This document shows positions 1-61,549 of a DNA stretch of 64,000 nucleotides, piece after piece. Source of the stretch: Mobula hypostoma (lineage: Eukaryota); assembly GCF_963921235.1 (NCBI RefSeq), contig NC_086108.1, forward strand, positions 23,870,001 through 23,934,000. The letters are read 5' to 3'. The translations under genes and the position numbers were made by a program. Position 1 is the first letter of the stretch, and each line of letters opens with the position of its first letter. The notes below the pieces were generated by a model. That model saw nothing but the letters and a program-made list of their open reading frames with translations, had not been told where the DNA came from and searched no databases.

Positions 1-1990
1 AACTTTTTTTAGTTGCTTTCTGTTGGCTTTGAAAGCTTCCTAATCTTCTAACTTTCTGCTAATTTTTACTCTATTATATGCTATCTCTTTCCCTTTTACG
101 TTAGCTTTGACTTCTTTTGTTAGCAATGGTTGTGTCATCTTTCCTTTAGAATACTCCTTCCTCTTTAGGATGTATATATCCTGTACCTTCAGAATTGTTT
201 CCAGAAATTCCAGACATTGCTGCTCTGCGGTCATCCCTGCTAGTTTTCTTTTCCAATCAATTCTGTCCAATTTCTCTCTCATGCCTCTGCAATGCCCTTT
301 ACTCCACTGTAATACCGATACATCTGACTTTAGCTCCTCCTTCTCAAATTTCAGGGTGAAGTCGATCACATTATGATCACTTGCCCCAAGAGATATTTTT
401 ACCTTAAACTCACTAATCAATTCTGGTTCATTATCCCAAATAGATGAGCCCCTTGGAGGCTCAATTACAAGCTGCTCTAAAAACCCATCTCACAGGCATT
501 CCAGAAATTGCCCCTCTTGGAATCCTGCAATTACCTGATTTTCCCAATCTACCTGCATATTGAAACCCCCCATGACTATTGTAACATTGCCCTTTTGACA
601 TGCATCTTCTATCTCCCATTGTAACTTGTAGACCACAGTCTTGCTTCTGTTTGGAGGACTTTATATAACTCCCATCAGGATCTTTTTACCCTTGCAGTTT
701 CTTAGCTCTGTCCACAATGATTCAACATTTTCCAACCCTATATCACCTCTTTCTAATGATTTAATTTCATTTTTTACCTACAGAGCTAAGTTACCCCCTC
801 TGTCTTCCTGCCTATCCTTTTGATACAATGTGTATCATTGGACATCTATATTCTTCTGTCAGCCATGATTCAGTGATGCCTACAATATTACACTTGCCAA
901 TCTGTAACTGTGCTACAAGTTCACCGACTCTATTCCATATACTGTGCGCATTCAAATATAACACCTTTAGTCCTGTATTCACCCTTTTCAATTTTGTCTG
1001 TGTTTTATGTTACAAGTCATCCTGATGACTGCAATTTTGCCCTATTATCAGCCTCTCCTGTTAGGAATCTCACTGCCTCTGTTCATCTTCAGCACTGTTA
1101 CTCTGGATCCTATGTATCTGCCAGATTAGTTTTAACCACCCAAACAATTCTAGCCAACCTGTACCCAAGGACATTGGACACCCTCTGGTTCAAGTGTAAC
1201 CTGTCCTTTTCGCTTAGGTCATGCCTTCCCAAGAAGAGATCCCAATGAATGATTCATCAAAACCCCTGTCCCCTACACCAGATGTTCAGCCATGTTTTCA
1301 CCAGCCAAACCATCTTATTCTTTCCCTCACTCGCATGTGGCATCGGCAGCAATCCAGAGATTACTACCCTGGAGGTCCTGTTTCTCGGCTTTTTACCTAG
1401 CTTCCCAAAATCTTTCTTCAGAACCTCCTCACCTTGTCTACCTTGTCTTTGGTGCCAATATGTACCAACACTTCCAGCTGCTCACCCTTACCCTTGAGAA
1501 TGCCATGGACACGATCCGAGGTATCCCTGATCCTAGCACCAAGGAGGCAACATATCATCTGGCCGTCTCTATCGTGCCCACAGAACCTCGCCTCTGTTCC
1601 TCTGACTAAGGAATCTCCTATCAACAGTGCAGTCCTCCACCTCTCTGCTCTTCTGAGCCACAGCACCAGACTCAGTGCCAGAGACCTGGTAACTGTGGCT
1701 CCTCCCCTGGGAGACCATCCGCTTAATAGTATCTAAAGTTACATACTTATTATTGAGTATACAGGTGTACCCTGCTCTGCATTCCGCCTCCTTCCCCGAC
1801 AGTCACCCAGTTACCTGTCTCCTTAAATCGGTACCTGTCTATCACCTCCTCATTTTCCTGTAGGAGCGTTAGGTCAAAAAGCTGCAGCTTCTGTTACTTA
1901 ATACTTTCTCTCATGAGCTGTAGCTTGGTGCACGTGGTGCAAATGTGTTTATCTGGGAGACTGGAGGTCCCACATACAGTACAAAACACT
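1..1990 (-). mobile_element. Decayed CR1 LINE, 5' part: ORF1 (CxxC motif and SGNH/GDSL esterase-like domain) and ORF2 APE endonuclease; continues off the left edge
   Basis: Minus strand reads LPDKHICTTCTKLQL near 1960. ORF 1418-1666 reads ALLIGDSLVRGTEARFCG...VLVHIGT. KVLYLNAHSIWNRVGEL...GITESWL starts near 966, and ORF 40-420 has LGASDHNVIDF. Frameshifts and stops are present. Confidence 0.9.
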
Positions 1991-3464: not shown

Positions 3465-3785
3465 GAAGCCTGAGGTTTGCGAGTCTGAGTCCGAGACCAA
3501 GGACTAGAGGCCCAGAGGCAGCCTATGCTGGTATTGGAGACTGGTCTGTGTGTGACAGTGGTTGAGAACGTGGGAAAGGGGCCTGTTTTGCTGTTGTTGT
3601 CTTGTTTCATTGTCATTTTTGCTGTTTGTGTCATTGTGAACATTGTGGGCATGAAATGTGTTGGTGTCAAAATGTGAGACATCACTTGTGGGCTGCCCCC
3701 AGCACCTCCTTGGGCGTATTGGTTGTTAACATAAATAACCCATTTCACTGTATGAGCATGTGATAAATAAATATGAATCTGAACT
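3465..3785 (+). mobile_element. 3' part of an unclassified non-LTR retroposon (family B)
   Basis: The segment cttgtgggctgcccccagcac...gttgttaac...tttcactgt...aataaatatgaatctga matches the reverse complement of 11925-12070. Confidence 0.65.
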
Positions 3786-3889
3786 TTCTAAAGTTGTACT
3801 GTCAACCTGTCAGATCTTCCAAAATCCCAAGATGTTGGTACTTGCAATAATACTGTTAGAGCTCAGAGGGTCAAGCAGCAAATGTGAAG

Positions 3890-4470
3890 GCAAAACATTT
3901 AAGCTGACATTTCAGGTTGAGGTCCCGCATCAGGAGAGGGAACAGGAAAGATTGTCAGTATCTAGCAGTACACACAGGATGGAACAGAGGCTGGCATGTG
4001 ACAGGTAGAATGGACTGGGAGAGAGGGTGACGGGTAGCTGGAATCAGATGCAGGGAAGGGTGGGTGGAATGAACGAAAGGAGCAGAGAACTAGGTAGACA
4101 GATAAATGTGTTGGAGTAAAGTACTGGAATGTGGGTTACCTGAAATTGGGAAATTCAATGTCTGTACTCTAAGTTACCCAAGTGGAATATAAGATGTTCT
4201 CCTTCCAATTTCCATTTGGCCTCTGTGTATCAATGGAGAAGATTGATGGCAGACGGGTTCTTGTGGAAACTGTCTGTCCTCGGGCTTCTCTGTTGCTACA
4301 GAGAGGCAACACGCAAAGTCGAAGAACAACACTCCAAATTCCGCTTGGGTAATTCCAACCAAATGGTCTAGACTCAAAGCATCAACTTACAATTTTTACC
4401 TTCACAGAAATTGCTCAACCCATTGAGTTCTTACAGAATTATATTTTTTGTTGCAGATTCCAGCATCTAT
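3890..4470. mobile_element. Inverted pair of decayed Penelope-like 3' ends
   Basis: Minus 4135-4225 reads EAKWKLEGEHLIFHLGNL..IEFPNFR and plus 4302-4370 reads EATRKVEEQHSKFRLGN. Both resemble the Penelope GIY-YIG C-terminus (RKLEEQHLIFRLG...). A degenerate hammerhead core lies at 3902-3934 on minus. Confidence 0.7.
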
Positions 4471-4729
4471 CAAATAAAATTTGAGTTGAATTATGAGACG
4501 AATACAGACGAATGAAACAGAGTTTCCACAGTCTTTTGTCATCATCCCTGTGCCCATGGGAGGCGCTTTCCAGAAGGATCTAGTGCTGTTGAAATCAGCG
4601 AGGACAGTGTGAATTAAACTTGCTCTTTCATACCAGACTATTTGAACAGAGTTGTTCGCAAATAAGCTTAGTTGTTCTTTCCCTGGCCTTGTGAGTTCCA
4701 TCAAGGCAGTGGCTGCACAGCAAGATCTC

Positions 4730-4743: not shown

Positions 4744-4929
4744 TGATGCACTAAAATTTAAACAGGCCTGCAATACTCTCAACTTCAATAGCAGCTTGCT
4801 GGAAACTTTATTCAACAGTCATTTTAAGAGAGCATCTAATTGTAAAATTATCTTGAGAACAACCTCACATCAAAAGATGAAACACATTGGCAAGAATGAC
4901 ACAAAAAAACAGAAAATTCTGGAAATCAT

Positions 4930-5094
4930 AAACACGAGAAATTCTGCAGATCCTGGAGATCCAAGGCAACACACACAAAGATGCTGGAGGAACTCAGCAG
5001 GTCAGGCAGCACCCATGGAAATGAATAAACAGTCAATGTTTCGAGCTGAGACCCTTCCTCAGGACCCTGTTGAGTTCCCCCAGCATTTTGGGTG
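4930..5094 (-). mobile_element. Penelope pLTR-derived short element: one full arm plus a truncated inverted arm, nested in an older related copy (about 4905-5220)
   Basis: Homologous to the 16-kb palindrome arm (atgctggaggaactcagcagg...gagacccttcctcaggac), followed by the inverted cctgttgagttcccccagcattttg. Confidence 0.75.
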
Positions 5095-8049
5095 AAATGT
5101 TGGAAACATACAGCAGGTCAGGCTATATCCAGGGAGTAAAAAGTTATCATGCTGAAATGTTGAGTTCAGCTTTATAATTTCAGTCTGACCTGCAGAGTGT
5201 TTGTGGCATTTTCTGTTTTTCTTTTCTTTTTATTTTTCTGCATCTGTGGTGTTATGCTTATTGATTACAAACACTTTCTGATTACTAATGCATGGATCCG
5301 AAGCAACCAGCTTTACCGAGGGATGGGTTTTTAGAATCTATTAACACCAAGTATTTAAGTTACCCTGGCTGCCAATGTCTCCCACTGATGATTTGCAGGT
5401 AAGAGAAGGACATTCGGTTCTTTGAAGAAAACCTCCTAAAACCAGGGAAGAATACTTCAGTTTGCAGGACGAACAACAAAACCAGGAACAAAACAAAGAA
5501 AAATTGAATACTTAAGCAAACCTTCAATCAGAACATTGCTAAAATTGCGGACTGGTTGTAATGAAGAAGACTGTTTACATGATGGGTATTCAGTTCTGTG
5601 AAGAGGACTGAATGCAACAGATTCTCCATGAAGAGGACTGACTGGACTAGGAAATGGTCAGCTGAATATCAAAGAGGTTGCCTGCTTGCTGTGGTGAATG
5701 TCAACAAGTCCTGATACGTTAAGGCACTTTGGAATTCTGCTTGTGGACCACAATTGATTGCTCCTCTCTACAATTCCTTGGAAAGTCAGTTAACTCACAA
5801 ACAATAGTATTGCTGCTGATGACTTCGTTGCACATGGCAAGTTGATGTCATGATTTTGGGTGAAGATCGCATCACTGACCCTCTGTACTGACTGCCTATC
5901 CAAGAGGCTTTCATTTTCACCACTTGCCTAGCCTAAAATGATCAGATAGCTTTGCTGATCATACCGTTATTGTTTCCTCCAAGAATCAAACTTACTTCAT
6001 AGTCATCACCTGTCCCACCTCCTTTAATCTTTTGTTGTCCACTACTCACTAACATAATAGTAACCTTTCTTATTTGTCAGTGCCCCACTCAAACTATATT
6101 TACACCTCATGGTCCAGGATTCTGACAAAATCAAATGTTGGAGACAGGTTCCTTCTGTGAAGTATCCCAAGGATATGCCATACACCAGTTTCCCAAGGAT
6201 TGAACAAGCACAGCAAACTGACAGTTAACTGAGAGTTAAGTATGGAACCTAGAAAAATGTGCTGGGGCTACAAGGAATGAGTTGACTCATGAAGCAGTGT
6301 GACATCACAAGTATAGTTTCACACTACTGTTGTATGCAATTCCAAATTAAAAGAGAACAGCACTATTTGTCTAATTACCACATTCCACTTTCTCATCAAG
6401 TGTGATACTCTCTGATATGACTAATGAACTACAATGATAACCTTCTAATGATTTGATGATAAAGGAAAATTCTCTTTAATATCAGTTATTTAAAAAAAAT
6501 TCAGATTCAAATGGTGAAAGAAAGCTCAAGGTTATGGTTATCAGAAGCCATCACCATTACTTCTGCATGATTGTTACAGTCCATTAACAACAGTCCTTGG
6601 TTAGCAAAGCTGTTTCAAATTATTAATGGTTCAAAGGTCTTGCGTCCAACACACATGCACACAAGTTCATCCGCATGTGCATGGGCAAACAAAAGCACAC
6701 ATATACAGGCATATTCACACACATACAGGAACTTGCATGTGCATCCGAACACACATACTCATGTGCACGAACATTGTTTTGTTCCATAAACATATATCCA
6801 TGGCTTGCAAGAACATGGCACAATCAAGCCAGATGCATCTCAACATAATTATAATCTCTCTAGCAGCAAATTTCTGTTCTACTCAAATGCTTTCTGAACA
6901 TTATATATGGCAAAATACAATAGGCCTCATGAAAACACTTGCCAATGTGTGCCTATTCTAATTTCTGCTAATCATCTATGTACTGTAGATTAATTAATCT
7001 ATGTTTTCTTTATCAGAAAATTGTAAGCGTCCCAAGCCTTAGACACAAGAGGTACTGCAGGTGCTGGAAGTTTGTTAGGTACTGGCCACCAGGTGAAGAA
7101 TTTGATTGTGCTCCCATTGGGGAGAAGTACTTACTGAGATTAGTAGCCCTGAGGAGTCTGCCACTAAGTCACCCGGCTGAATGCTGGCTCCCTGTGTCCA
7201 CTGGGCAAATTCAGAACACTGCTCCCAGAGTATTACAGAGAAAATCCAATGGGACAAGAGGGTTGGGCTGGTGGGGGCAGATCAGAAGAGGACCCATGAA
7301 AAAAAAGAGGTCCAGTTGTAGAGACTGGGTGTGGAAGAAGACAGGGACATTGATTCCATTGTGCATAATTTTACCATCAGTGAGGAATTGCCAATGTTTT
7401 CTGGTGAGAGTGTTATCACATTATAGGTCAATATTGGCAGCAGCAGGTATTTCAATCAGTTTGGAATGGGTGTGAGCAGAGTTGATATTTACATGGATAA
7501 ATTCTGAGGCTTGGAATCCAATTAATTTCACTGTAAAATCGATCAATTTTGTCTGCAAATACAAATTGCTCACATTTCATCTTCAAGCAATTAACTGTTT
7601 TGACTTCTAATTTACATATTAATTATTTTAGTTTAATTACGTGATAATTTCAGCCTGAAGTAACTTCTTGATAAGTGAACCCTTCCATATTTAGTCACTA
7701 AGCACAAATATATGCTGAATTCATTAGTAGGAATGTTTAAATTATACAGTATTTTGCTTTTTTTTTATCTAGACCAAAAAACTTTCACGTTCAGTTCCGA
7801 TGTGTGTCAAGTTGTGCAAACTCCTACAAGTGGTAATACCTAGCTTATCAACGGGCATCTAAGCATAAAGTAAGAAGGGCAAGCCGATAACCCAACTCTG
7901 AAGTTGTAGGTTGGTTGGGAAAGAGAAAGGATGTGATGAGAAGGAGGGTGTAGGGGAACAATTGAGTCAATACCGAGAGAGATTAGAGACATTACTGAGG
8001 CCAACTACCACAGCGAAAGTTCCTCAGGGCAATGTCTTAGATACGATCA

Positions 8050-10746: not shown

Positions 10747-11204
10747 AAATGCTCTACCTTGCAAAGAGACTGGCGACATGTGTATCAGACATTGCTCATT
10801 TTATAGATACTATAAGTGTGGAGAAGGCTACAAAATGTGTGGCACAGTGGAACAAAAAGTCGAGCTTCGGCAACCTGGGTTCCGTCCTGGCCTCTGGTGC
10901 TTCTTGTATGGAGACTGCACATTGCCGCAACAACAAACAAACAGCTGGAGGAAGTCAAGGGGCTAGGCAGCTCCTGTGGAAGCAGAGGGACTGTTTGTAG
11001 GTGAGTAGCAGAATCTGGATTATGTCATTGGGAATGTATCAGAGGAAACACTAACAGGGGACTGGATTTCTCTGTGAATTACCTAAATGTCAGAAGGATA
11101 TAGAAACAAACAGCTTATCTGTGCAGTGAGGTTAAGATTAAAAACACTGAACATTGTCGTCTATTAGCGAATCATATATAGAGGTTGTCCCCCAAGGTAC
11201 ACAC

Positions 11205-14410: not shown

Positions 14411-16056
14411 CACTTTATTTCATTGAAGATGTGATAACAAAAGAAAATATGCTGATTTTAGCTAGCACCCGGTTTGAATGCATGCAAGCAGTACTTCTGA
14501 TTAATACAGGGCAAATGACCTTTACAATTCTAAAATAGCTACAAATTATGGACAAGAGAATTTTATTTTTGATTCAGATGAATTATTTGGACCATGACCA
14601 CTGGCCACCCTTTCAAAATGCTTGATTCTTCATGAGCCTGTTTTTTACTGCTGGCAAGTGCTCACCTCAGTTGAGTACATAAGAGACCATTACATTCTGT
14701 GAAATGCTCTTTTCTTTTGCTGGTAAGTCACTGCTGTTCTCTCGCTTTCTTTTTCTGTATGTAGCTATCTCAGGAGATTGAAAGAGATTGTGCCCTTGTT
14801 TGAAGGACATCATTTGCCACTGAGATTTTACTGTGTCTGACTCCCAAACTCATAGCCCCTAATGACAGCACAAGTGGGGCCAGAAGCAACAAGAAATGAT
14901 TTGCAGGTATTCAAGATGCCAAAAAAAACATTACAATCAGGTTTCCAGGGATTGGTTAAATGCAAAAGATGACATTATCATGTAATTGCCTTGTGGTCTG
15001 TGTCTCAATTGCTATGCCCAACTATAGTTTGATAGATGAAGGATGAGGTTTATTAATCAAGCAAAGCAGGCTATAGCAGAAGCTGTAAATGGAAAATAAA
15101 AACAGGAAGTACTGGAAATGCACAGCAAGTCAAACAGTGTTGACTGAGAGGCACAAACTGTTGAATGTTTCAGAATTTACATCTGAGCTGGAAAATCTTA
15201 CAGTCCTTGAAAGTCAGTCTGGAGGTTGTAGAATCAGAGTAGTGGTGAGTGAAGTTATCCACTCCAATTCAGGAGCCTGATGGTTGCAGGATAAGAACCT
15301 GGTGGTATGGGACCTAAGGCTTTGTACCTCCTGACTGATGGTAGTAGCGAGAAGATGATGGAGATTTTTGATGATGAATGCTGCTTTCCTGAGGCAGTTC
15401 TCCATGTAACTATGCTCAATGGGGGGAGGGCATTACTTGTACCGTATAGACTAACCGGTAACCACTACATTTTGTAGACATTCTCGTTCCTGGGCATTAG
15501 TATTTCCCTACCAGGCCATGATGCAAATCAGTTAGGATGCTCTCTACTGTGCATTTATAGAAGTTTGTCAAATTTGGTGACACGCTAAATCTTACAGAGC
15601 TAAAGATGGCACTAGAGGACGACTTCTCCCAGCTCATCAGTGAAACAGTTAAATTCTTCCTATTCTATTGTCTCTATTTTCATTTCAGAGTGGCTGGCAT
15701 CCTATCAGAATTTTTGATTTACAGTGGCACCCAAAAACTGCGGTTCCGCATGACGGCATGTTCTCGTTCTTGGAGCTTGCTGATCAGCCGCACTTCAGTA
15801 TGTCCAGACTTGGCCTGAAGTCAGGCAACTTCAGGGCTTGCACAGCACTGTGGACACAAATTCTCACCAGTGTCACGTACTGGATTGTAGCGGGAGCCGG
15901 CACATCAAAGACAGCAAGAGTGGCTGTCAGAGGGCTCTGCACTCAGTAATCGATTTGCTGATTCTTGGGTCGGGGAACTCGAAATAAAAAAACAACAACA
16001 CACATCAAAGTTGCTGGTGAACGCAGCAGGCCAAGCAGCATCTATAGGAAGAGGCG

Positions 16057-16094
16057 CAGTCGACGTTTCAGGCCGAGACCCTTCGTCAGGTTAG
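16057..16094 (-). ncRNA. Mirror-image minimal hammerhead motif on the minus strand
   Basis: Minus reads CTGACGA AGGGTCTCGGCCT GAAA CGTC GACTG. The core is intact, but the 5' strand of stem I (ctaac) is disrupted at the palindrome centre. Confidence 0.6.
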
Positions 16095-16129
16095 TCCTGA
16101 CGAAGGGTCTCGGCCTGAAACGTCAACTG
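16092..16129 (+). ncRNA. Minimal type I hammerhead ribozyme motif (Penelope type)
   Basis: CTGACGA (16097-16103), stem II AGG-gtctcgg-CCT, GAAA (16117-16120), then CGTC with predicted cleavage after 16124. Stem I is tagtc/aactg, with the first pair broken by A16125. Confidence 0.7.
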
Positions 16130-19100
16130 CGCCTCTTCCTATAGATGCTGCTTGGCCTGCTGCGTTCACCAGCAACTTTGATGTGTGTTGCTTGAATTTC
16201 CAGCATCTGCAGAATTCCTGTTGTTTGCATAAAAAAACAACATTTCAGATTGACTGTAACATCGAAATAGCAAATGTTGTCCCACCTGTTGCTGTGGAAG
16301 GAGTGATATCTGTATCTTTCGTGTTAGTGAGAGTCTGTGGGATGTCAAAATGTTGGCGTGAACAGTTAGTTTTTGATGGACTGTAAATCGTGGTCTCTCT
16401 TTGGGGACTTTGCTTTTGCTTACATGGTGGGTGGTGGGAATGCTGATGCTTTATGCTAGAATAATTTGGGGAGGGGAAGGTTGATGCTACTTGCTGCTTC
16501 CTATGTGTGTGGGGGGGGGCAGGGGCTTTGTGATTCTTGTCTTTTTTCTGTCACTCATCCTTTGGGGTTTTTTTCTGTTTTGAGGATGTCTGTGGAGAGT
16601 ATGAACTTCAGGTTGCATATTGTATACATTCTCTGATATTAAATGGAACTATTGAACTATACAAACTTTTAAGAAAGTAGAGGTGTGGTCATGCATTCTT
16701 TCTGTTGACAGTTATGCTTGATACCAGGACAGATTCTTTGATTTTTTAATGCTAAGGAATTTAAAGCTACTGACCCTCTTCACCTCTAATCCTCTAGCAA
16801 AGACTGGCTCATGGACTTTTGGGTTCTGCCTCCTGTGGTTGATAATTAGCTCTTTGTTTCGCTGGCATTCAGTGAGAGATTGTTGTTATGGCATCACTCA
16901 CATTTTCAATTTCCCTCCTGCATGGCAATTCATTACCACCTCTGATTCAACCAATAACAGTGGCATCATCAGCAAAATAAAAAAAAATATGTCATTGGGG
17001 CTGTACTTTGCCACATTATCATAAGTATAAAGTGAGTGAGCAAGGAGTTAAGCACACAGCACAGTGACGCACCTATGGTAATGGTGAGTGTGGAGGAGAT
17101 GTTGTTACCAGTCTGTATTAACGGGCCTGTCAGTGAGGAGAGCCTTCTTCACCGAACAGACCAATGTTCATCACTCTATATTAGAAAGCTAAAAACTGCC
17201 CACACATCCACTCCACCTGACTCATAGCATGTGGAGGCAAGAAACTGTAAAAGCAACAATAGATTAAATAATTACTTCACCGCAGGAAGCTACTTACTCC
17301 ATTGCTGCTTTAGGGGAAGCTTTTAGAGTCAACTGACCTTCTATCCAATCCTCCTCTACCACCCTGTAAATTTCTCATCTCTTTTGTTCCATTTCCCCTT
17401 TGCAAACCATAAAATCTTGACTTTTTTGTCAAGTGAAGGTGCCATAATCCAGGTAAAATTGCAGTTTCTTATAGTGATGGTGAGAGCAATAAATGATTCA
17501 AGAGTGGCAAAAGAATAAGTGATTTAATTTGGCTTTAGGAAACTGGCATATATGCACAGCTTGTCTTAGTCAGGGTTGAGCTTTTGAGTGAGAATTTAAG
17601 TGCACTGACCTCTCTTCTATTCTAGTAATACTACATGTGGACAACTAAAACAAAAATCTTTGGTGCTTGTCTGGCCTAGATCCCATTGCTGGGGTCAGCA
17701 GGAGCAGTCACTAGAGTGAGTTGCCCTCCACTCGAATGGTGACTGATCTTGATGAATCGAGGCTGAGGAAAGGGAAATGGCAGAGTACAGAGTTTCAGTC
17801 CTTTGCTGTTGCTGACCCCTGGAATCTTGAGTGTTATATTCCCAACTTTGATTCCTGCTCCTGGTGATAGAATAGAGGGTGCATAATGTGTCAAAGAGCC
17901 CTTCGACGTTCACCATAATTGATTCTGGTGCACAGTGCAAAGGTACCTAACTGTGAACTATTACAAATATAGAAATAATTGCTGTTCCAGTGCAAAACAA
18001 CAGCACTGGCACCAAAATCCTCATCATAGCCTTAAACAGTTCCCCACTTTATAATGCTTTAGCAATAACTATAAAACATAAAGAGTATGTACAATGAAAC
18101 CGACATGTCTGTGATATCCAAACAGGGTCAGAATTGCCACTGTCCCCTTTCTTAACGGAACGTGAAAACTGAGAGTCTATCTGTAGTGAGATGGCAATGA
18201 CACGGCTCTGCAAAGGATGAGGAACCATTCAATGCAATCTGATTTTTAAAAAAATTGAAGACATAAATGTCATCCATCACTGGTCAGAAAAAATAGAATG
18301 GATGCCAATCATCCTGATGGAGTTCTTTTACGAGTCAAGACTGAAGATGGAATTGAAGAGGGAGCAATGCCATTTAAATATCACTATGTTGGGGATTCAG
18401 GCTACTTCAGTATTGGTCGCTGCTCAGCACATTCAGCACTGTGACATTTAAGCAGTAACTCTCTTTCCTTTCACTGCAAGCTCCCAGAACTGATCCAAAA
18501 CTAAAAATGCAGGACAGATGGAGGGACAGAATTCAAAGCTGTGCAACAGGGACCAGGCACTGTGGCTTTGAGGGAGAGTTACATGTTGATTATCTTTGAC
18601 TGGCTACAAACTGGCTGGATCAGTTTCCAGCACAGCAACTTGAAACAAGAATTTGTTGGTGGAATTGAGAAAGCAGATACTCAAAATGGTGCAGCAGCAG
18701 TGACATAAAGCTACTGTTTCTCTTCCGTAAATGTCAGAATGAGACAGCACAAATGGTTTTGAAGGGCACTTCTTCCTGCATGATATTTTATTATCTTTTC
18801 CTGCTAGTGGTATCTACATCTGAGCCATATATTAATTTTGTTAAACAGTCAAAAGTAATTGGCTAAGGTATTGTGCATCAGTGTCCACATTTTGTCTCTA
18901 AGACCATGTAAGTATGAGTCCCTTGTTTAATGTTTCATATTTTTCATGTTTCTGTCTGTAATAAATAAGTAAATCTATATGAGCCTTTTATACTCATATT
19001 CCAGCCTTCCCAGGTTGGGCAGACCCAGTGTGTTTCTGTAGATCCTTACCCTTTACAGCTCTGCTTTCTAAATAAAGGTATTTTGCAAAAAAAAAGACGT

Positions 19101-19634: not shown

Positions 19635-21335
19635 ACACCGGGCTCATCAATGATTATCATCTGTATCAATGACTTGGAAGAGAATACACAAGACATGACT
19701 AATAAGCTTGGAGAAATTTAGAGTAGGAGGAGCTAATGATGGCGAAGCGGTTTTTGTAGACCTTGATGATATCTTCCAGTATATCCGCAAAACAGTCTCT
19801 TTCTCATGCCCCTTCTTTCCTTTTCAAGGAAGCTGGGGTCCTGTCAGAGTTCACGATCTACAGCTATGTTCAAGCTACATTCTTCGTGGGTAGTGGGTTG
19901 TTGTTCTCAGAACTCCCAGGGTGGCCTGCGTTTCGGGATCTCCAGGAGTGGCTTGGAAGATGTGCGCCTTTGGGTTGTGGCCTTGTGGACGATCCGATTC
20001 CTCGCTGACTGAAGTTTCGCAGGAGATCAAAACATGGAGGCAGCCAGACGCCTCTGCACTTGAGCAATCTCTTTCTCTTGATGGTGAGAGAGAGTCTGCT
20101 CATTCTCGAGTCCGAGGAACTCGAATAAGCGACGCTGCAGATCGTAACATCGAAACAGTGAGCTGTTGGCCACCCTTTTTGCTGTGGCAGGAATGGTATC
20201 TCTCTCCCTCCCTCACTAGGGAGAGAGAGAACCTGTTTGACATAGCTACAGTAAGTGTTGGGATGGATAGTAGTTGGTGAAGGACTCTGGATCATAGTCT
20301 CTGAGGGCTTTGCTTTTGCTTGCATGGTGGGTGGTGTGGTGGGGGTTGATACTTTTGCTGGAGCAATTGGGGTGGTGGGAAAAAAGGGGTTGATGCTTTT
20401 TCTGCTGCTTGCATGTGGGAGGGGAGGGGGCTTTGGGGCTGTAACGTTTTTCTGTCATTCTTCTTTTGCTTTTTTTTTCATCTGCAAAGAGTAAGGATTT
20501 CAGGTTGCAGTGTATACATTCCTTGATATTAAGTAAAACCATTAAACCATGGAACTAAAATAGATTGTGTTATTAGCAGAAAAGATAGTTATCATGATTT
20601 ATGGAGAGATTTTGATCAGCTAGCTAAGTGGGTATTCTGAAGTGCAAATAGAGTTTAATTCAGACAAGTTTGAGGTATTGCATTTTGTAAAGACACATAA
20701 GTGTTGGACTTTCATCGTGTATGGTAACACCCTGGGCAAGTTCATAGAACATAGAGATCTAGGAGTGCAAGAACACGGTTCCCTGAAAGTAGCATTGCAG
20801 GTGGACAGGATGGCAATTAAGGCATTTGGTATGTTGACCTTCATCAGTCAGCGTGTAGAAGTTGGAATGTTATACTGCAAGTGTATAAGATGATGGTGAG
20901 GACGCATCTGTAATATTCTATTCACTTTCTGGATTATGGAGAGATTTTGAGCAGATTGGTCCCTTTTTCAGTGGCATGTAAGAGAATGATGGATGATTTT
21001 ATGCAGGTGTGTAAAATTATGAGAAGCCTAGATAGGGTGAATATGTACATTCCTTTCCCAGGGTTGGGTAATCAAGAACTAGAGGGCGTAGGTTTATGGT
21101 GAGAGGAGAGAGATTTAATTGGAACCTGAGGGGCAATTTTCCGCCCAGAGTGTGGTTAGTATATGGAACGAGCTGCCAAATGAAGCACTTGAGAAAGGTT
21201 TGTCAACAACATTTCAAAGGTTCTTGGATACGAAAAGTTTAGAGAGATATGGGACAAACACAGAAATGGGAATCACTTAGATGGGAATCTTGGTTGGCCA
21301 AAAGGTCAGATTCCATGCTGTATGACTTATGACTT
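19635..21335 (+). mobile_element. Decayed CR1 LINE 3' part (end of RT and 3' tail), interrupted by family A
   Basis: INDLEENTQDMTNK precedes 19710. After 20555 come TKI... and QIEFNSDKFEVLHF...RDLGVQEHGSLKVALQVDR, then a tail gggccaaaaggtc...ttccatgctgtatgact. Confidence 0.85.
19729..20552 (+). mobile_element. Non-coding retroposon family A, copy 2
   Basis: Starts ggagctaatgatggcg, contains ggaactcgaataagcgacg and ctttgcttttgcttgcatggtgggtgg, and ends gtatacattccttgatattaa. Confidence 0.7.
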
Positions 21336-36735: not shown

Positions 36736-38044
36736 GACGGTATTATCCCCATTTACATTCAGTTGACTGTGGCCGGCTGAACACTTTGATCATATGGCCA
36801 ATACTAGGCTCCTTTTACAAACATTCTATTCTACGATCTAATGATCAGATTAACAGTGGAAATGATCCAGCGATGTATTCAGCTTCTCTTCGAACAAATG
36901 CAACACAACTGTACTGACTCTTAAGAACTACTGACCCCTGAGAAAAAGCACCTGGGATGATATTGAGAACTTTGAGACCGGTGGAAGGAATGCACCAACT
37001 CACAAACCAGTCATCCAGCAATGGAAAAGGTGGCAGTTTCTACGTTGGCCTCATCAGCCACATAATAATCCATGAAATCAGAGTGGAGGTAGGCCATCCT
37101 ACATCCCAAGGGAATGCCTAAGAAGGACCTCTGCTGCTATTTCAAAGACTTCAGAGGTTTATTTGCTAGATAGAGTACTTTGTTCTCTGCCTCCGAAGTT
37201 CACATCCTTGAAATCATTGAATTTTGCACTGCTAGATTGTGATACATTTCTGCCTAGCATTATTTTGAGTTTCTATGACAAGTTCTACTTAGTAATTGCA
37301 ACTCTTGATAGAGACTGAAGCAAGAAATTCTGTCATGGATATGAGCTCAAAACTCAACCTAATTAGCCTGTGATAGTGTAATTCCTAATAGTGCAGTTCC
37401 AGCTTGGAAAATAGTCAGGAAAAAGAAATGGGAACGAGCATTTCTGAAAATGTGCGCAATTTTTGAATTTATTTCTTCACATTCAGAGGGCATGATCATC
37501 AACACAAGTCATTAGAACATATTGAAATACTATGAACTCTATTTTTTCTGTGTCAAGTACATAAGTATCTAAAGAACCAATACCTTATCAATATAATATA
37601 AACTACAATACAGAGAATTATTCAAAACTGACACAGACCTTAACATTTCCTTTATGATGATGAAAACTGCTATAAAGTTTCCTCTTTCCCTTTTGTAGTC
37701 CATTAACAGTGAGGTCAGAAAATTCATTTACAGAGAATAATTGAAAATAAATCTGGCAGCAGAAAACAGTTCAGCAGCTGGCACGGTCAAGGGGAAGAGA
37801 ACTTAAACAAGTGAGTATAAAGGATTGCGGTGCTAAAGAGAGATCAGGTGAAATTTCACAAGACAGGTAGATTTAGAAAAGGCATGAGAAGAGTAAGCAT
37901 ATGATCATATGAATGAAAGTTATTCAGCAAAGCAATAGGTCCTTTGGGCTACTGTATTCACAATGACCCACTCACAAGTTTATTTATCCTCTTACATTAA
38001 CTACACCTTCTTCTTTGCCACCCACCTGCACTACAGTGCTTGCA

Positions 38045-42720: not shown

Positions 42721-43276
42721 AAATCTGTATTACTGGTGAGTGTCTGAGCATCCCTGATGGAGGAAATGAATCAGAGTGGTAGAGACATCCAGTGTTTTAC
42801 TAAGTAATCAAAGATATTACATTCAGTAATGAAAATGAGCAATGTAATTATTTACGCATTATAGTGCACTTCATCGATTCCAAAAATGTGCTATCTCTAC
42901 GTTCCTCCCTTTTCAGCAGAGAATACAGACTAAATTTCAATTTTACCTTATTCCATTTCAGGGATGCTATCAATTATTTTGCGAGTCAAGTAAGCTCCTG
43001 TGAAATATGCATTTATGTTCGAATAAATTGGTTCCAAAGTGAAAACTATGCACCAGAAGCATCAGCCTTGTTCTTTGGTGGTGTGTCTTTGACCTGAGTA
43101 TAATGTTCATTTTTTTTCCAACAGATGCTGCCTTACCTGCTAAGTGCTTCCAGTATTTTCTGTAGTAGATTTTAGATTTCTATCTTCTGTAGTCTTTGGA
43201 GTCATATCCTACAGATTATTGTTACTTCAATTGTCCATAATATACATGTTGATAAAAAATTGATTATTAAGTAATG

Positions 43277-43463: not shown

Positions 43464-44107
43464 TATTAAGTAATGAACTACTTGTTTTTCTGATTTTAGA
43501 CTTTCAGGGTGCTTTCCTACATCTTCCAGTTTCTTATTAATATGTGTTTTAAATAGGCCGTCTGAATTAAAAGAGATTAATATGCCAACATATAGTTTTC
43601 TTCAAAGCCTGAAAGCAACAAGCAATTTGTTCACCTGTCACAGTAGCTGGAAAATGCCCTTATTAGTCAACATGTTAGAAAAGTAATTTATCTTCATCTG
43701 CAGCCAGCATATCAGCATACACCAGATGCACTCACTGAAGCTAACCAAAGCAAATACCAAGTGGCAAGTACACACATTTAGCACTCTCTGCTCAGTCGCT
43801 GTCTGTGTACAACAAGTGACAAGAAAGAAGCCCATATTCGGGTAGTTAACTCCTTAAACAGAATAGTGACTGACAAATCCATGACAAGGACAGCAACGAG
43901 AATTAATTGAGTGCAAGTTAAATGAATGACCCGTTGATGGGATAGTCTCCTTTGGAGTTTATATTTTTCAACAAAGATGAAGGGTACTTAACAAATGAGC
44001 CACTAATGCAGGCTGTTTACCATACTGACACAAAACATCTTTAACAGCTCACATCAAGCCTTGCTTCTGCCTTTGAAGAACGTGAAACATATATAACTTA
44101 AGAGTGG

Positions 44108-46046
44108 GTGATGAACTTGCTGGGACAGCTAAACTTCTCCATGATCTTCCACAAGCCTTCTCTGCTGACCGTATCGAAAGCCTTGGTTAGATCGACAAAG
44201 GTCACGAAGAGGTCACTGTGTTGCTCCTGGCATTTTTCCTGGAGTTGGGGCGCAGCAAAAATCATGTCCGTGGTCCCACGTTCAGCACGGAAGCCGCACT
44301 GGCTTTCTGGGAGCAGACCTTGCTCAAGATGTTGGAGAAGGCGGTTGAGCAGGACGCGGGCCAGAATCTTCCCCGCAATGGACAAGAGTGAGATGCCTCG
44401 GTGGTTGTCGCAAGACTGGCAGTTGCCTTTCCTCTTGTAGATATGGACTATGCTGGCATCTTTCAGCTGTTGCGGGACCTGTCCCTTTTTCCACATGGAC
44501 TGGAAGAGTACAGTCAGCTTTTGCATCATGACAGGGCCTCCTGCTTTGTATACCTCAGCAGGGATTGCATCGGGTCCTGGCGCTTTGCCACAGGAGAGTT
44601 GCTTCACTGCCTTCCTGACTTCATCTTCTGTGGGGAGGGTGTCGAGGTTCTTGTTGATCTCTACCTGGGGCAGGCGGGCAATGGCCTCGTCGTTGATGTT
44701 GGCATGGCGGTTAAGGACGTTGTTAAACTGCTCAGCCCACCGATCCAGAATCTGCTTCATCTGTTCGTCACAATCGTCCGGCAGTTCCACGACAGTATGA
44801 TGGTGAAAGTTCTGGATGACGGCGACGAGTTGGAGGCCTTCCCAGTGACAAATGGCGTCAAACAAGGCTGCGTTCTTGCCCCGACTCTGTTCAGTATGGT
44901 ATTCTCTGCCATGCTGACAGATGCCTTCCGTAACTACGAGGAAGGAATCCACATCGGGTACAGGACTGACGGCAGGTTGTTCAACCTTAGGCGCCTGCAG
45001 GTAGTTACAAAGGTGCAAGAGACTGTCATCAGAGACTTCTTGTTTGCTGATGACTGCGCACTCAACGCCAGCACAGAGCAGGAGATGCAGCGTGAAATGG
45101 ACTGCTTCTCACAAGCCTGCGACAACTTTGGGCTCACTATTAGCATCAAAAAGACCGAAGTTATGTACCAGCCTGCCCCAGGAAAGCCATACCAGGAGCC
45201 GTGCATCACGGTGAAGAGCCAGAACCTCCAGGTAGTCAACAACTTCACCTACTTGGGCAGCATACTCTCTCGCGCAGTGAACATAGACGCTAAGGTCAAC
45301 AACAGGATTGCCAAAGCCAGCGACGCCTTTGGGAGACTTGTGAGAATGTCTGGGAGCGGAGAGGACTCAGCCTTACCACCAAGCTGAAGGTCTACTGTGC
45401 GGTGGTCCTTACCACCCTCCTTTACGCCAGCGAGACCTGGAATGTCTACAGCGGACACGCCAAACAGCTCAACCACTTTCACCTGAGCTGTCTCCGCAGA
45501 CTCCTCCACGTCAGGTGGCAGGACAAAGTCCCTGACACGGAAATCCTGGAACGAGCTGGGCTCTGCAGTGTCTACACCCTCCTGCTGAAAGCCCAAGCCA
45601 GGTGGGCTGGACATGTGGTCAGAATACCAGACAGCCGATTGCCTAAGCAGCTGCTGTACGGAGAACTGTGTCAGGGCAAGCGATCAGTCAGGGGGCAGAA
45701 GAAATGTTACAAAGACTGCCTCAAAGCGTCCCTCAAAGGCCTGGGTGTCGACATCAACATGTGGGAGACGCTTGCCCTCGACCGTCCAGCTTGGTGCAGC
45801 AAGATCACCACAGGAGCCCGTGCAGCTGAAGTCAGGCGCATCATCGAGGCGCAACAAAAGCGTGCTGTGCGCAAGGCCCGAGCAGCATCCACTGCCACGA
45901 CAGCACCCACCCACTTGTGTCCCACATGTGGGCGAGCCTTCAGGGCCCGGATTGGCCTCATCAGTCACCTCCGGACCCACAGCCACCAATCTTCCATTTG
46001 ACTTTGAAGCCATGGTCATCTTCGATTGCAAAGGACGAACAACAAC
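44108..46046 (+). mobile_element. Young 5'-truncated RTE-clade LINE with a 5' inversion (44108-~44762 inverted)
   Basis: RT motifs GKAPGPDAIP, NHRGISLLS, ESQCGFR and FVDLTKAFDTV are on minus. GVKQGCVLAPTLF, DFLFADDCAL, FTYLGS and the C-terminal CPTCGRAFRARIGLISHLRTH are on plus. It has an (AAC)n tail, TSD AAGAGTGRGT and one frameshift near 45340. Confidence 0.95.
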
Positions 46047-60217: not shown

Positions 60218-60680
60218 CTCCCTCGCACTTGTCTGCATTAAATTCCATGTGCCTTTGTTCAGTCCATTTTTACAGCTAGTCGAAATCATGCTGCATGCTT
60301 TGATAGTCTTGATCGTTCTCCACTCCACCCCCAAATTTGTTGATCCATATCATTGATATAGAAAACTAACAACAACAACCGACCCAGCACCGATCCCTGC
60401 AGCCCTTCAAAAGTCACAGGCCAGTAAGAGAGGCAACCATCTACGACCACTCTCTGGCTTTTCTTACAAAGCCAAGGTCTAATTCAATTTACTACCTCAT
60501 CTTGAATGTCAAGCCACTGAACCTTCTTGACTAACCTCCCATGCAGGTCTTTGTCAAATGCTTTACTGAAGTCCATGAAGACAACATCCACTGCCTTGTC
60601 TTCATTAACTTTCTTGGTAACTTCCTTGAAAAGCTCTGTAAGATTGGTTATACATGACCTAACATAGACAAAACTATGGC

Positions 60681-61130
60681 AACTCACACAAACTACTGGA
60701 GGAACTCAGCCAGCTAGGCAGCATGAATGGAAAAGAGTAAACAGTGGATGTTTTGGGCTGAGACTCTTCTTCAGGACTGCAAAGGAAGGGGAGAATCAGA
60801 GTAACAAAGTGGGGGAAGGGAGGAAGAAACACAGTCTGGCAGAGTGAGATGATAGGTGAAACCAGGAGAGGGAGAGGGGTGAAGTAAAGAGCTGGAAAAT
60901 TGATTGGTGAAAGAGATAAAGAGCTGGAGGAAGGGGAAACTGATAGATGACGATAAAAGACCATGGAAGAAAAGGAAGGGGGAGGAGCACCAGAAGGAGG
61001 TGATGGGCAGGCAAGGAGATAAATTGAGAAAGGGAAGAAAGGGAAAGAGGAATGGGGAATGGTTGGGGTGGGGGGGTGATAATTACCGGAGGTTCAAGTA
61101 ATCAATGTTTATGCCATCAGATTGGAGGAC
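60681..61130 (-). mobile_element. Penelope-like element 3' fragment (ORF end, pyrimidine-rich UTR and pLTR arm)
   Basis: Minus reads LQSDGINIDYLNLR-stop at about 61083-61127, then a CT-rich UTR, then gtcCTGAAGAagagtctcagcccAAAAcatc and the arm shared with 15996-16090. Confidence 0.8.
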
Positions 61131-61549
61131 AGATAAAACATTGCTGACTATTCCTAATCAGTCCATGTCTATCCAAGTACTCATATATCCAGTCCCTTAG
61201 AGTAACTTCCAATAACTTTCCCACTACTGCTGTCAGGCTTGCCAGCCTGACATTTCCCGGTTTATTTTTAGAACCTTTCTTAAACAGCGGAACAACATTA
61301 GCTATACTTTCATACTCTGGTACCTCACCTATTGCTAAGGATGATTTGAATATCTCTACTAGGGCCACAGCAGTTTCTGTGCTTACATCCCACAGGGTCC
61401 TGGGTATCTGGACCTGGGGATTTATGTACTCTAATCTGCCACAAGCCAGCAAACACCTCCTTCTCTGTAATCTGTATAGAGTCCTTGACCTCACTGCTGC
61501 TTTGCCTCCCTTCTTTGGAGACTGTGTCTGCCTCCCAAGTAAATACAGA

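Follow-up and report, generated by a model that had tools for sequence, protein, structure and literature searches.

A young palindromic insertion with paired hammerhead cores in Mobula hypostoma, very probably left by an abundant Penelope-like retroelement

Within a stretch of 64,000 nucleotides (nt) of the Mobula hypostoma genome (assembly GCF_963921235.1, contig NC_086108.1, positions 23,870,001 to 23,934,000 of the forward strand; hereafter the window), positions 15984 to 16242 hold a near-perfect palindrome that carries a hammerhead ribozyme core on each strand. The locus is very probably a single, recent, dead-on-arrival minimal insertion made by a very abundant Penelope-like retroelement (PLE). 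Its outer ends coincide with the two 3' ends of a repeat family, which lie 38 nt apart, and both of its inner ends fall at the 5' edge of the hammerhead. The component parts, with the target-site duplication abbreviated TSD, are as follows.

15984-15997, plus strand: TSD, left copy; its last 2 nt (CA) are common with the outer end of the inverted arm
15996-16090, minus strand: inverted tail-less end-repeat copy of 95 nt, truncated at the hammerhead 5' edge
16057-16090, minus strand: minimal hammerhead core, in which stem I keeps its 3' strand intact but loses its 5' strand at the junction
16090-16095, plus strand: head-to-head junction and loop; GTTAGT is the continuation of a subfamily's own upstream sequence
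16092-16129, plus strand: minimal type I hammerhead (CUGACGA, bulged A, helix II, GAAAC-GUC), with a predicted cut after 16124
16090-16190, plus strand: sense 5'-truncated end-repeat copy, pLTR-like
16191-16228, plus strand: 38-nt 'tail', which the opposite end lacks and the window copy at 4930 shares
16229-16242, plus strand: TSD, right copy; a contig from the same organism (run X1, below) is exact over 16208-16313

The two inverted arms (15996-16090 and 16096-16190) are 95 nt each and agree at 94 of 95 positions around the 5-nt loop TTAGT, reproducing the arm length, identity and loop size given in an earlier sequence-only reading of this DNA. Their sole mismatch, A16125 against G on the minus strand (16061), is a G-to-A change at a CpG. 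No other inverted repeat in the window has 20 or more paired bases with no more than 3 mismatches and a loop no longer than 40 nt. The palindrome is bracketed by a 14-bp A-rich direct repeat, which is likewise the only exact 14-mer repeat at a spacing of 200 to 300 bp and from which the TSD proposed earlier is deduced. The arms contain 5 and 6 CpGs against a mean of 1.06 per 95-nt bin, with 17 of 673 bins reaching 5, an excess that fits the young age previously argued from CpG retention. The 38 bp at 16191-16228, which the sequence-only reading had left unexplained, are part of the repeat family and match the 'tail' of Penelope insertions. With this tail the sense end-repeat measures 139 nt, and the inverted tail-less copy adjoins its 5' end.

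The abundance and the ends of the family come from public sequencing runs. The stretch or a part of it is present in 20 of the 24 runs listed, and contigs from four of these (X1, X5, X9 and X21) were aligned to the locus at 88% likeness. X1 is from the same organism and X5 and X9 are from relatives, while X21 is guessed to be RNA and is unused as evidence of expression. A total of 82,016 contigs from X1 aligned, giving a summed depth of 2.0-5.9 million over 15992-16237 compared with 6-9 for exact single flank contigs. Because overlapping short contigs are added up, this depth does not give the number of copies, but it does place the family far above single copy and reveals its sharp ends. The other three runs have the same depth profile. 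At the 3' side, loose ends of the family lie behind 16226/16228 in X1, X5 and X21, and a second end near the equivalent of 16190-16192 is seen as loose ends behind 16192 in X21 and in the window copy at 60679. Both end classes, with and without the 38-nt tail, thus occur in the family. Upstream of the hammerhead the family has two continuations. One is a pyrimidine tract, with loose ends before 16093; the other is sequence of a subfamily, which joins at G16090 and is marked by loose ends before 16090 in all four runs (197, 95, 37 and 25 contigs; consensus agreement 0.57-0.62). The loop thus comes from the parent itself, and the arms overlap by 1 nt at G16090.

Four older copies of the family are found in the window at E<1e-3, at 4930-5065, 60679-60778, 10927-10981 and 43126-43163. 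The first (minus strand) has the 38-nt extension. The second, also on the minus strand, is tail-less and extends about 350 nt upstream through the pyrimidine tract to a short frame end. Across the family copies the 5' truncation is variable and the 3' ends are conserved, as expected for a PLE. Two further observations concern the family at large. Go-back joints occur in the contigs within 16003-16172 (16089 to 16003 at depth 210, 16172 to 16094, and 16121 to 16090), which suggests that the hammerhead unit occurs at other places in the genome in short direct tandems; these may be retrozyme-like. A 1250-nt contig of X21 (depth 867) starts with 85 nt of the end-repeat and continues beyond it, and may contain the 3' part of the parent element. 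This particular repeat family is undescribed in the literature searched, which lay outside most subscription journals and the repeat databases.

The arrangement has close published counterparts. Insertions of PLEs are 5'-truncated and often have an inverted truncated copy adjoining the 5' end, with a 30-40 bp tail on one side, and the formation of the inverted copy is termed undefined (PMC8557442). Inverted pLTRs with 8-10 bp TSDs and palindromic head-to-head junctions have also been described, for which self-priming was proposed (PMC3846280). The locus shares with these endonuclease-positive insertions (PMC8557442, PMC3846280) the inverted 5'-truncated head-to-head copy, the one-sided tail, the TSD and the AT-rich target, but its copies measure only 95-139 nt and hold no coding sequence. 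In the green anole, the PLE tail is the stretch between two internal reverse-transcription starts, cleavage and extension take place on both strands of the target, at AT-rich sites, the hammerhead needs the protein, and the main template is uncut RNA (PMC11167929). Like the Poseidon element PAc of that animal, the locus has two ends 38 nt apart that match the tail, and its insert spans the predicted cut site, as expected with an uncut RNA template; the template would therefore have been uncut there. Unlike PAc, the locus is known from an insertion product alone (PMC11167929). Non-LTR retrozymes (PMC7229834; bioRxiv 10.64898/2026.07.22.740005) are similar in being short, non-coding, derived from PLE end-repeats and equipped with a type I hammerhead, but they are direct tandem repeats whereas the copies here are inverted, and no tandem array was found at the locus. 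Every part of the architecture is thus already in print, and this particular locus is a young example of it.

The insertion probably arose in the following way. The endonuclease of the element would nick both strands of the A-rich target 14 nt apart; an ATT motif is present at both presumed nicks, a weak observation made after the fact. Reverse transcription would begin at an internal site of the RNA, the tail end (16228), and halt after 139 nt at the 5' edge of the hammerhead. The stretch would be copied a second time, now with the other start site (16190, 38 nt further in) as its limit; the new copy would join head to head through 1 nt of microhomology, and repair would fill the target duplication. 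The second copy may come about because the second nick primes its own cDNA (two-ended priming), or alternatively because the first cDNA snaps back and copies itself, and the two routes are about equally probable. As the arms share minority variants (16034 and 16131), they would derive from one template or one source locus, which fits both routes.

If every insertion makes its mirror half afresh, the centre of the palindrome should vary, and this is what is found. Among the 15 junctions listed (687 further junctions exist), 11 join the antisense to the sense arm and the other 4 lie outside the element. No two of these 11 in-element junctions coincide, and their inverted arms range from 32 to 95 nt, although the sides of a junction measure only 20-26 nt and other letters possibly intervene in 9 of the 11. 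Sense halves often begin at 16090-16099 (5 of the 11, this locus, and the copy at 5065), a clustering that is partly an artefact because the reference has no family sequence further upstream. One junction, 16061-16099, stops at the mirror position of the cut site; it has 4 nt of microhomology and was for this reason not counted as a trace of cleavage. The window itself contains three head-to-head structures with three centres: the palindrome, an older pair at 4978-5001/5066-5089 with a 64-nt spacer, and an old inversion with a 5-nt loop (4174-4260/4266-4352), which has outer arms at 3847-3907/4382-4442 that look like this end-repeat. The sequence-only reading had offered two options, a minimal Penelope insertion product and an independent fold-back element. 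The first is supported. The second is unlikely by the outcome that reading had itself named as fatal to it, because centres and arm lengths vary among the junctions listed and the structures in the window.

Several results weigh against an origin by PLE insertion as set out above. Of the 11 in-element junctions listed, six are seen in more than one organism (two or three), and all 11 reach a depth of 34-182 in at least one run compared with 6-9 for single flank contigs; some junction types are therefore multi-copy, either as microhomology hotspots or through later amplification. The TSD of 14 bp exceeds the 8-10 bp cited for PLE insertions (PMC3846280). No joint that skips the insert, as an empty site would give, is present among the 15 junctions listed (687 further); in the relative X5, flank contigs end at 15938 and resume at 16244. 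Finally, no search linked the repeat to a PLE protein, which would combine a telomerase-like reverse transcriptase with a GIY-YIG endonuclease; the assignment to PLEs is made from the architecture. Degraded frame ends of 16-38 amino acids lie upstream of the older relatives; these peptides are alike among themselves, and we take them to resemble the end of a PLE GIY-YIG domain, which the searches did not confirm. Pfam gave no match for 4 candidate peptides upstream of the older copies, and the candidates had no scored homologue and no usable Atlas or PDB match; one homologue match was rejected as spurious and repetitive. Among 88 frames of the window, Pfam found RVT_1 in other, distant repeats only.

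The multi-copy junction classes can be taken to support a different account, in which the palindrome re-amplifies as a unit with fixed centre and ends, as a non-autonomous fold-back element that derives from the PLE and is mobilised by its enzyme. These classes are several to about 25 times the depth of single contigs and are common to several organisms, sense halves often share a start, and copies with the exact centre of this locus are uncountable because that centre equals the reference. Even so, this account is unlikely. The junctions listed all differ, as do the three centres in the window, and the recurrence is explicable by microhomology hotspots. In addition, the one-sided tail marks a primary PLE insertion (PMC8557442), and a hairpin of -213 kcal/mol should be a poor template. 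It is similarly doubtful, if compatible with the depth of the junction classes, that some fixed-centre palindromic stubs, possibly including this locus, are now mobile as fold-back double-hammerhead PLE derivatives distinct from tandem retrozymes.

Alternatively, the inversion may post-date the insertion, through gene conversion or hairpin repair, or two separate insertions may stand side by side. The density of the family, with the four further copies in 64 kb, makes such neighbours conceivable, but the explanation is improbable. A single 14-bp duplication brackets both arms, the arms differ at one position in 95, and the inverted arm stops at the family's second end. Moreover, the depth in X1 is mostly G at 16034 and A at 16131, and both arms carry the other letter.

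The sequence-only reading had described back-to-back cores, one per strand, and the core pattern indeed matches once on each strand of the palindrome, at 16097-16121 (plus) and 16065-16089 (minus), with all core nucleotides intact on both strands and 7 nt between the cores. The window has 5 matches to the pattern where 0.71 are expected, and 0 of 100 shuffles gave as many. Two more of the window matches, at 37036-37057 (minus) and 1380-1421 (minus), are not of the repeat family and are probably due to chance. Pattern scans of other sequence collections yielded no locus of the family: viral contigs gave 0 and 1 stretches in two scans, metagenomes 0 and 6, and prokaryote genomes 1, and all 8 are GC-rich, match over at most 31 nt and were treated as chance. 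A covariance-model search, which the sequence-only reading had proposed, did not bear the assignment out, as no hammerhead family in Rfam matched at E<=10, probably because the motif is without helix III. The best Rfam match, mir-3926 (47.6 bits against a gathering score of 82), was rejected as a match to the hairpin.

Published minimal hammerheads have a bulged base before helix II and typically a palindromic 15.2-16.2 (PMC4209133). The locus shows the corresponding core boxes, bulged base and palindromic 15.2-16.2, and helix III is absent, so that all these features of the minimal PLE hammerhead are present. Helix II had been drawn earlier as AGG/CCT; the helix itself stands but the register does not, as RNAfold prefers a bulged A followed by GGGU/GCCU closing the loop CUCG, in the register of PMC4209133. 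This helix of 4 bp has a G-U at 10.1-11.1 where a G-C is usual (PMC4209133). Like the metazoan PLE hammerheads in that report, the locus has a short helix I and an opposite-strand pair, but the published pairs are 100-700 bp apart whereas these abut, and stem I is broken here. Neither strand has a helix I of 4-5 bp that closes on the cut site. On the plus strand the first pair, next to the cut, is C-A (A16125) with 4 pairs beyond, and on the minus strand, where the junction has deprived stem I of its 5' strand, 2 isolated pairs remain, which agrees with the imperfect stem I already noted for both copies. In the repeat family the strands of stem I are complementary (5' AGTC, 3' GACT).

Folding makes self-cleavage at this locus very unlikely. 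The predicted ensemble energy of the hairpin is -213.6 kcal/mol for the plus strand and -220.3 kcal/mol for the minus strand, and a fold in which helices I and II are imposed and the core is left open is less favourable by 64 and 72 kcal/mol, respectively. The proposal that a hairpin competes with the ribozyme fold thus holds up in the calculations, and these energies also support the earlier suspicion of an inactive locus. Least likely of all is a functional ribozyme at this locus, or an RNA switch with competing hairpin and hammerhead folds: the cores are intact, and the plus core with the minus-strand cleavage site could in principle form a complete site in trans, but whichever strand is transcribed the antisense arm is made before the sense arm, isolated arms still need 8 and 12 kcal/mol for core opening, stem I is broken on both strands, metazoan minimal hammerheads have low cleavage activity even as dimers (PMC4209133), and the anole hammerhead is protein-dependent (PMC11167929). 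We infer that the hammerheads are passengers of the end-repeat and are unused at this locus in vivo.

The surroundings are rich in older structures. At 3755-4478 there is an old, larger head-to-head structure, the 87-nt arms of which (4174-4260/4266-4352) are 71% identical and apparently lie in a degraded frame end; it includes a decayed hammerhead (3902-3935, minus) and a possible decayed TSD (3755-3771/4462-4478). The region 4905-5220 holds the tailed copy 4930-5065 (minus) with a 24-nt inverted arm, together with a second older inverted pair (5095-5124/5182-5211) and a 13-nt perfect inverted repeat at the outer ends. At 60679-61140 (minus), the tail-less copy is followed by the pyrimidine tract and about 16 codons of frame end, and adjoins a LINE-like fragment. 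A GC-rich and fairly intact LINE-type reverse transcriptase fragment occupies 44098-46001 (RVT_1, E 6e-16 and 5e-13) with a C-terminal C2H2 finger, and its partial placement on the opposite strand suggests an internal inversion. The palindrome itself is inserted among older repeats (15520-15700 and 16326-16690), where flank depth is in the thousands and exceeds 100,000 at 16607-16647; related copies are found at 20253 and 36250.

A single locus carries little weight alone, and the value of this one is as a clean young record of PLE insertion. Many short TSD-bounded stubs in one genome would allow two-ended priming and snap-back self-priming to be tested against each other by counting. Such stubs seed near-perfect hairpins, which would yield double-stranded RNA if transcribed.

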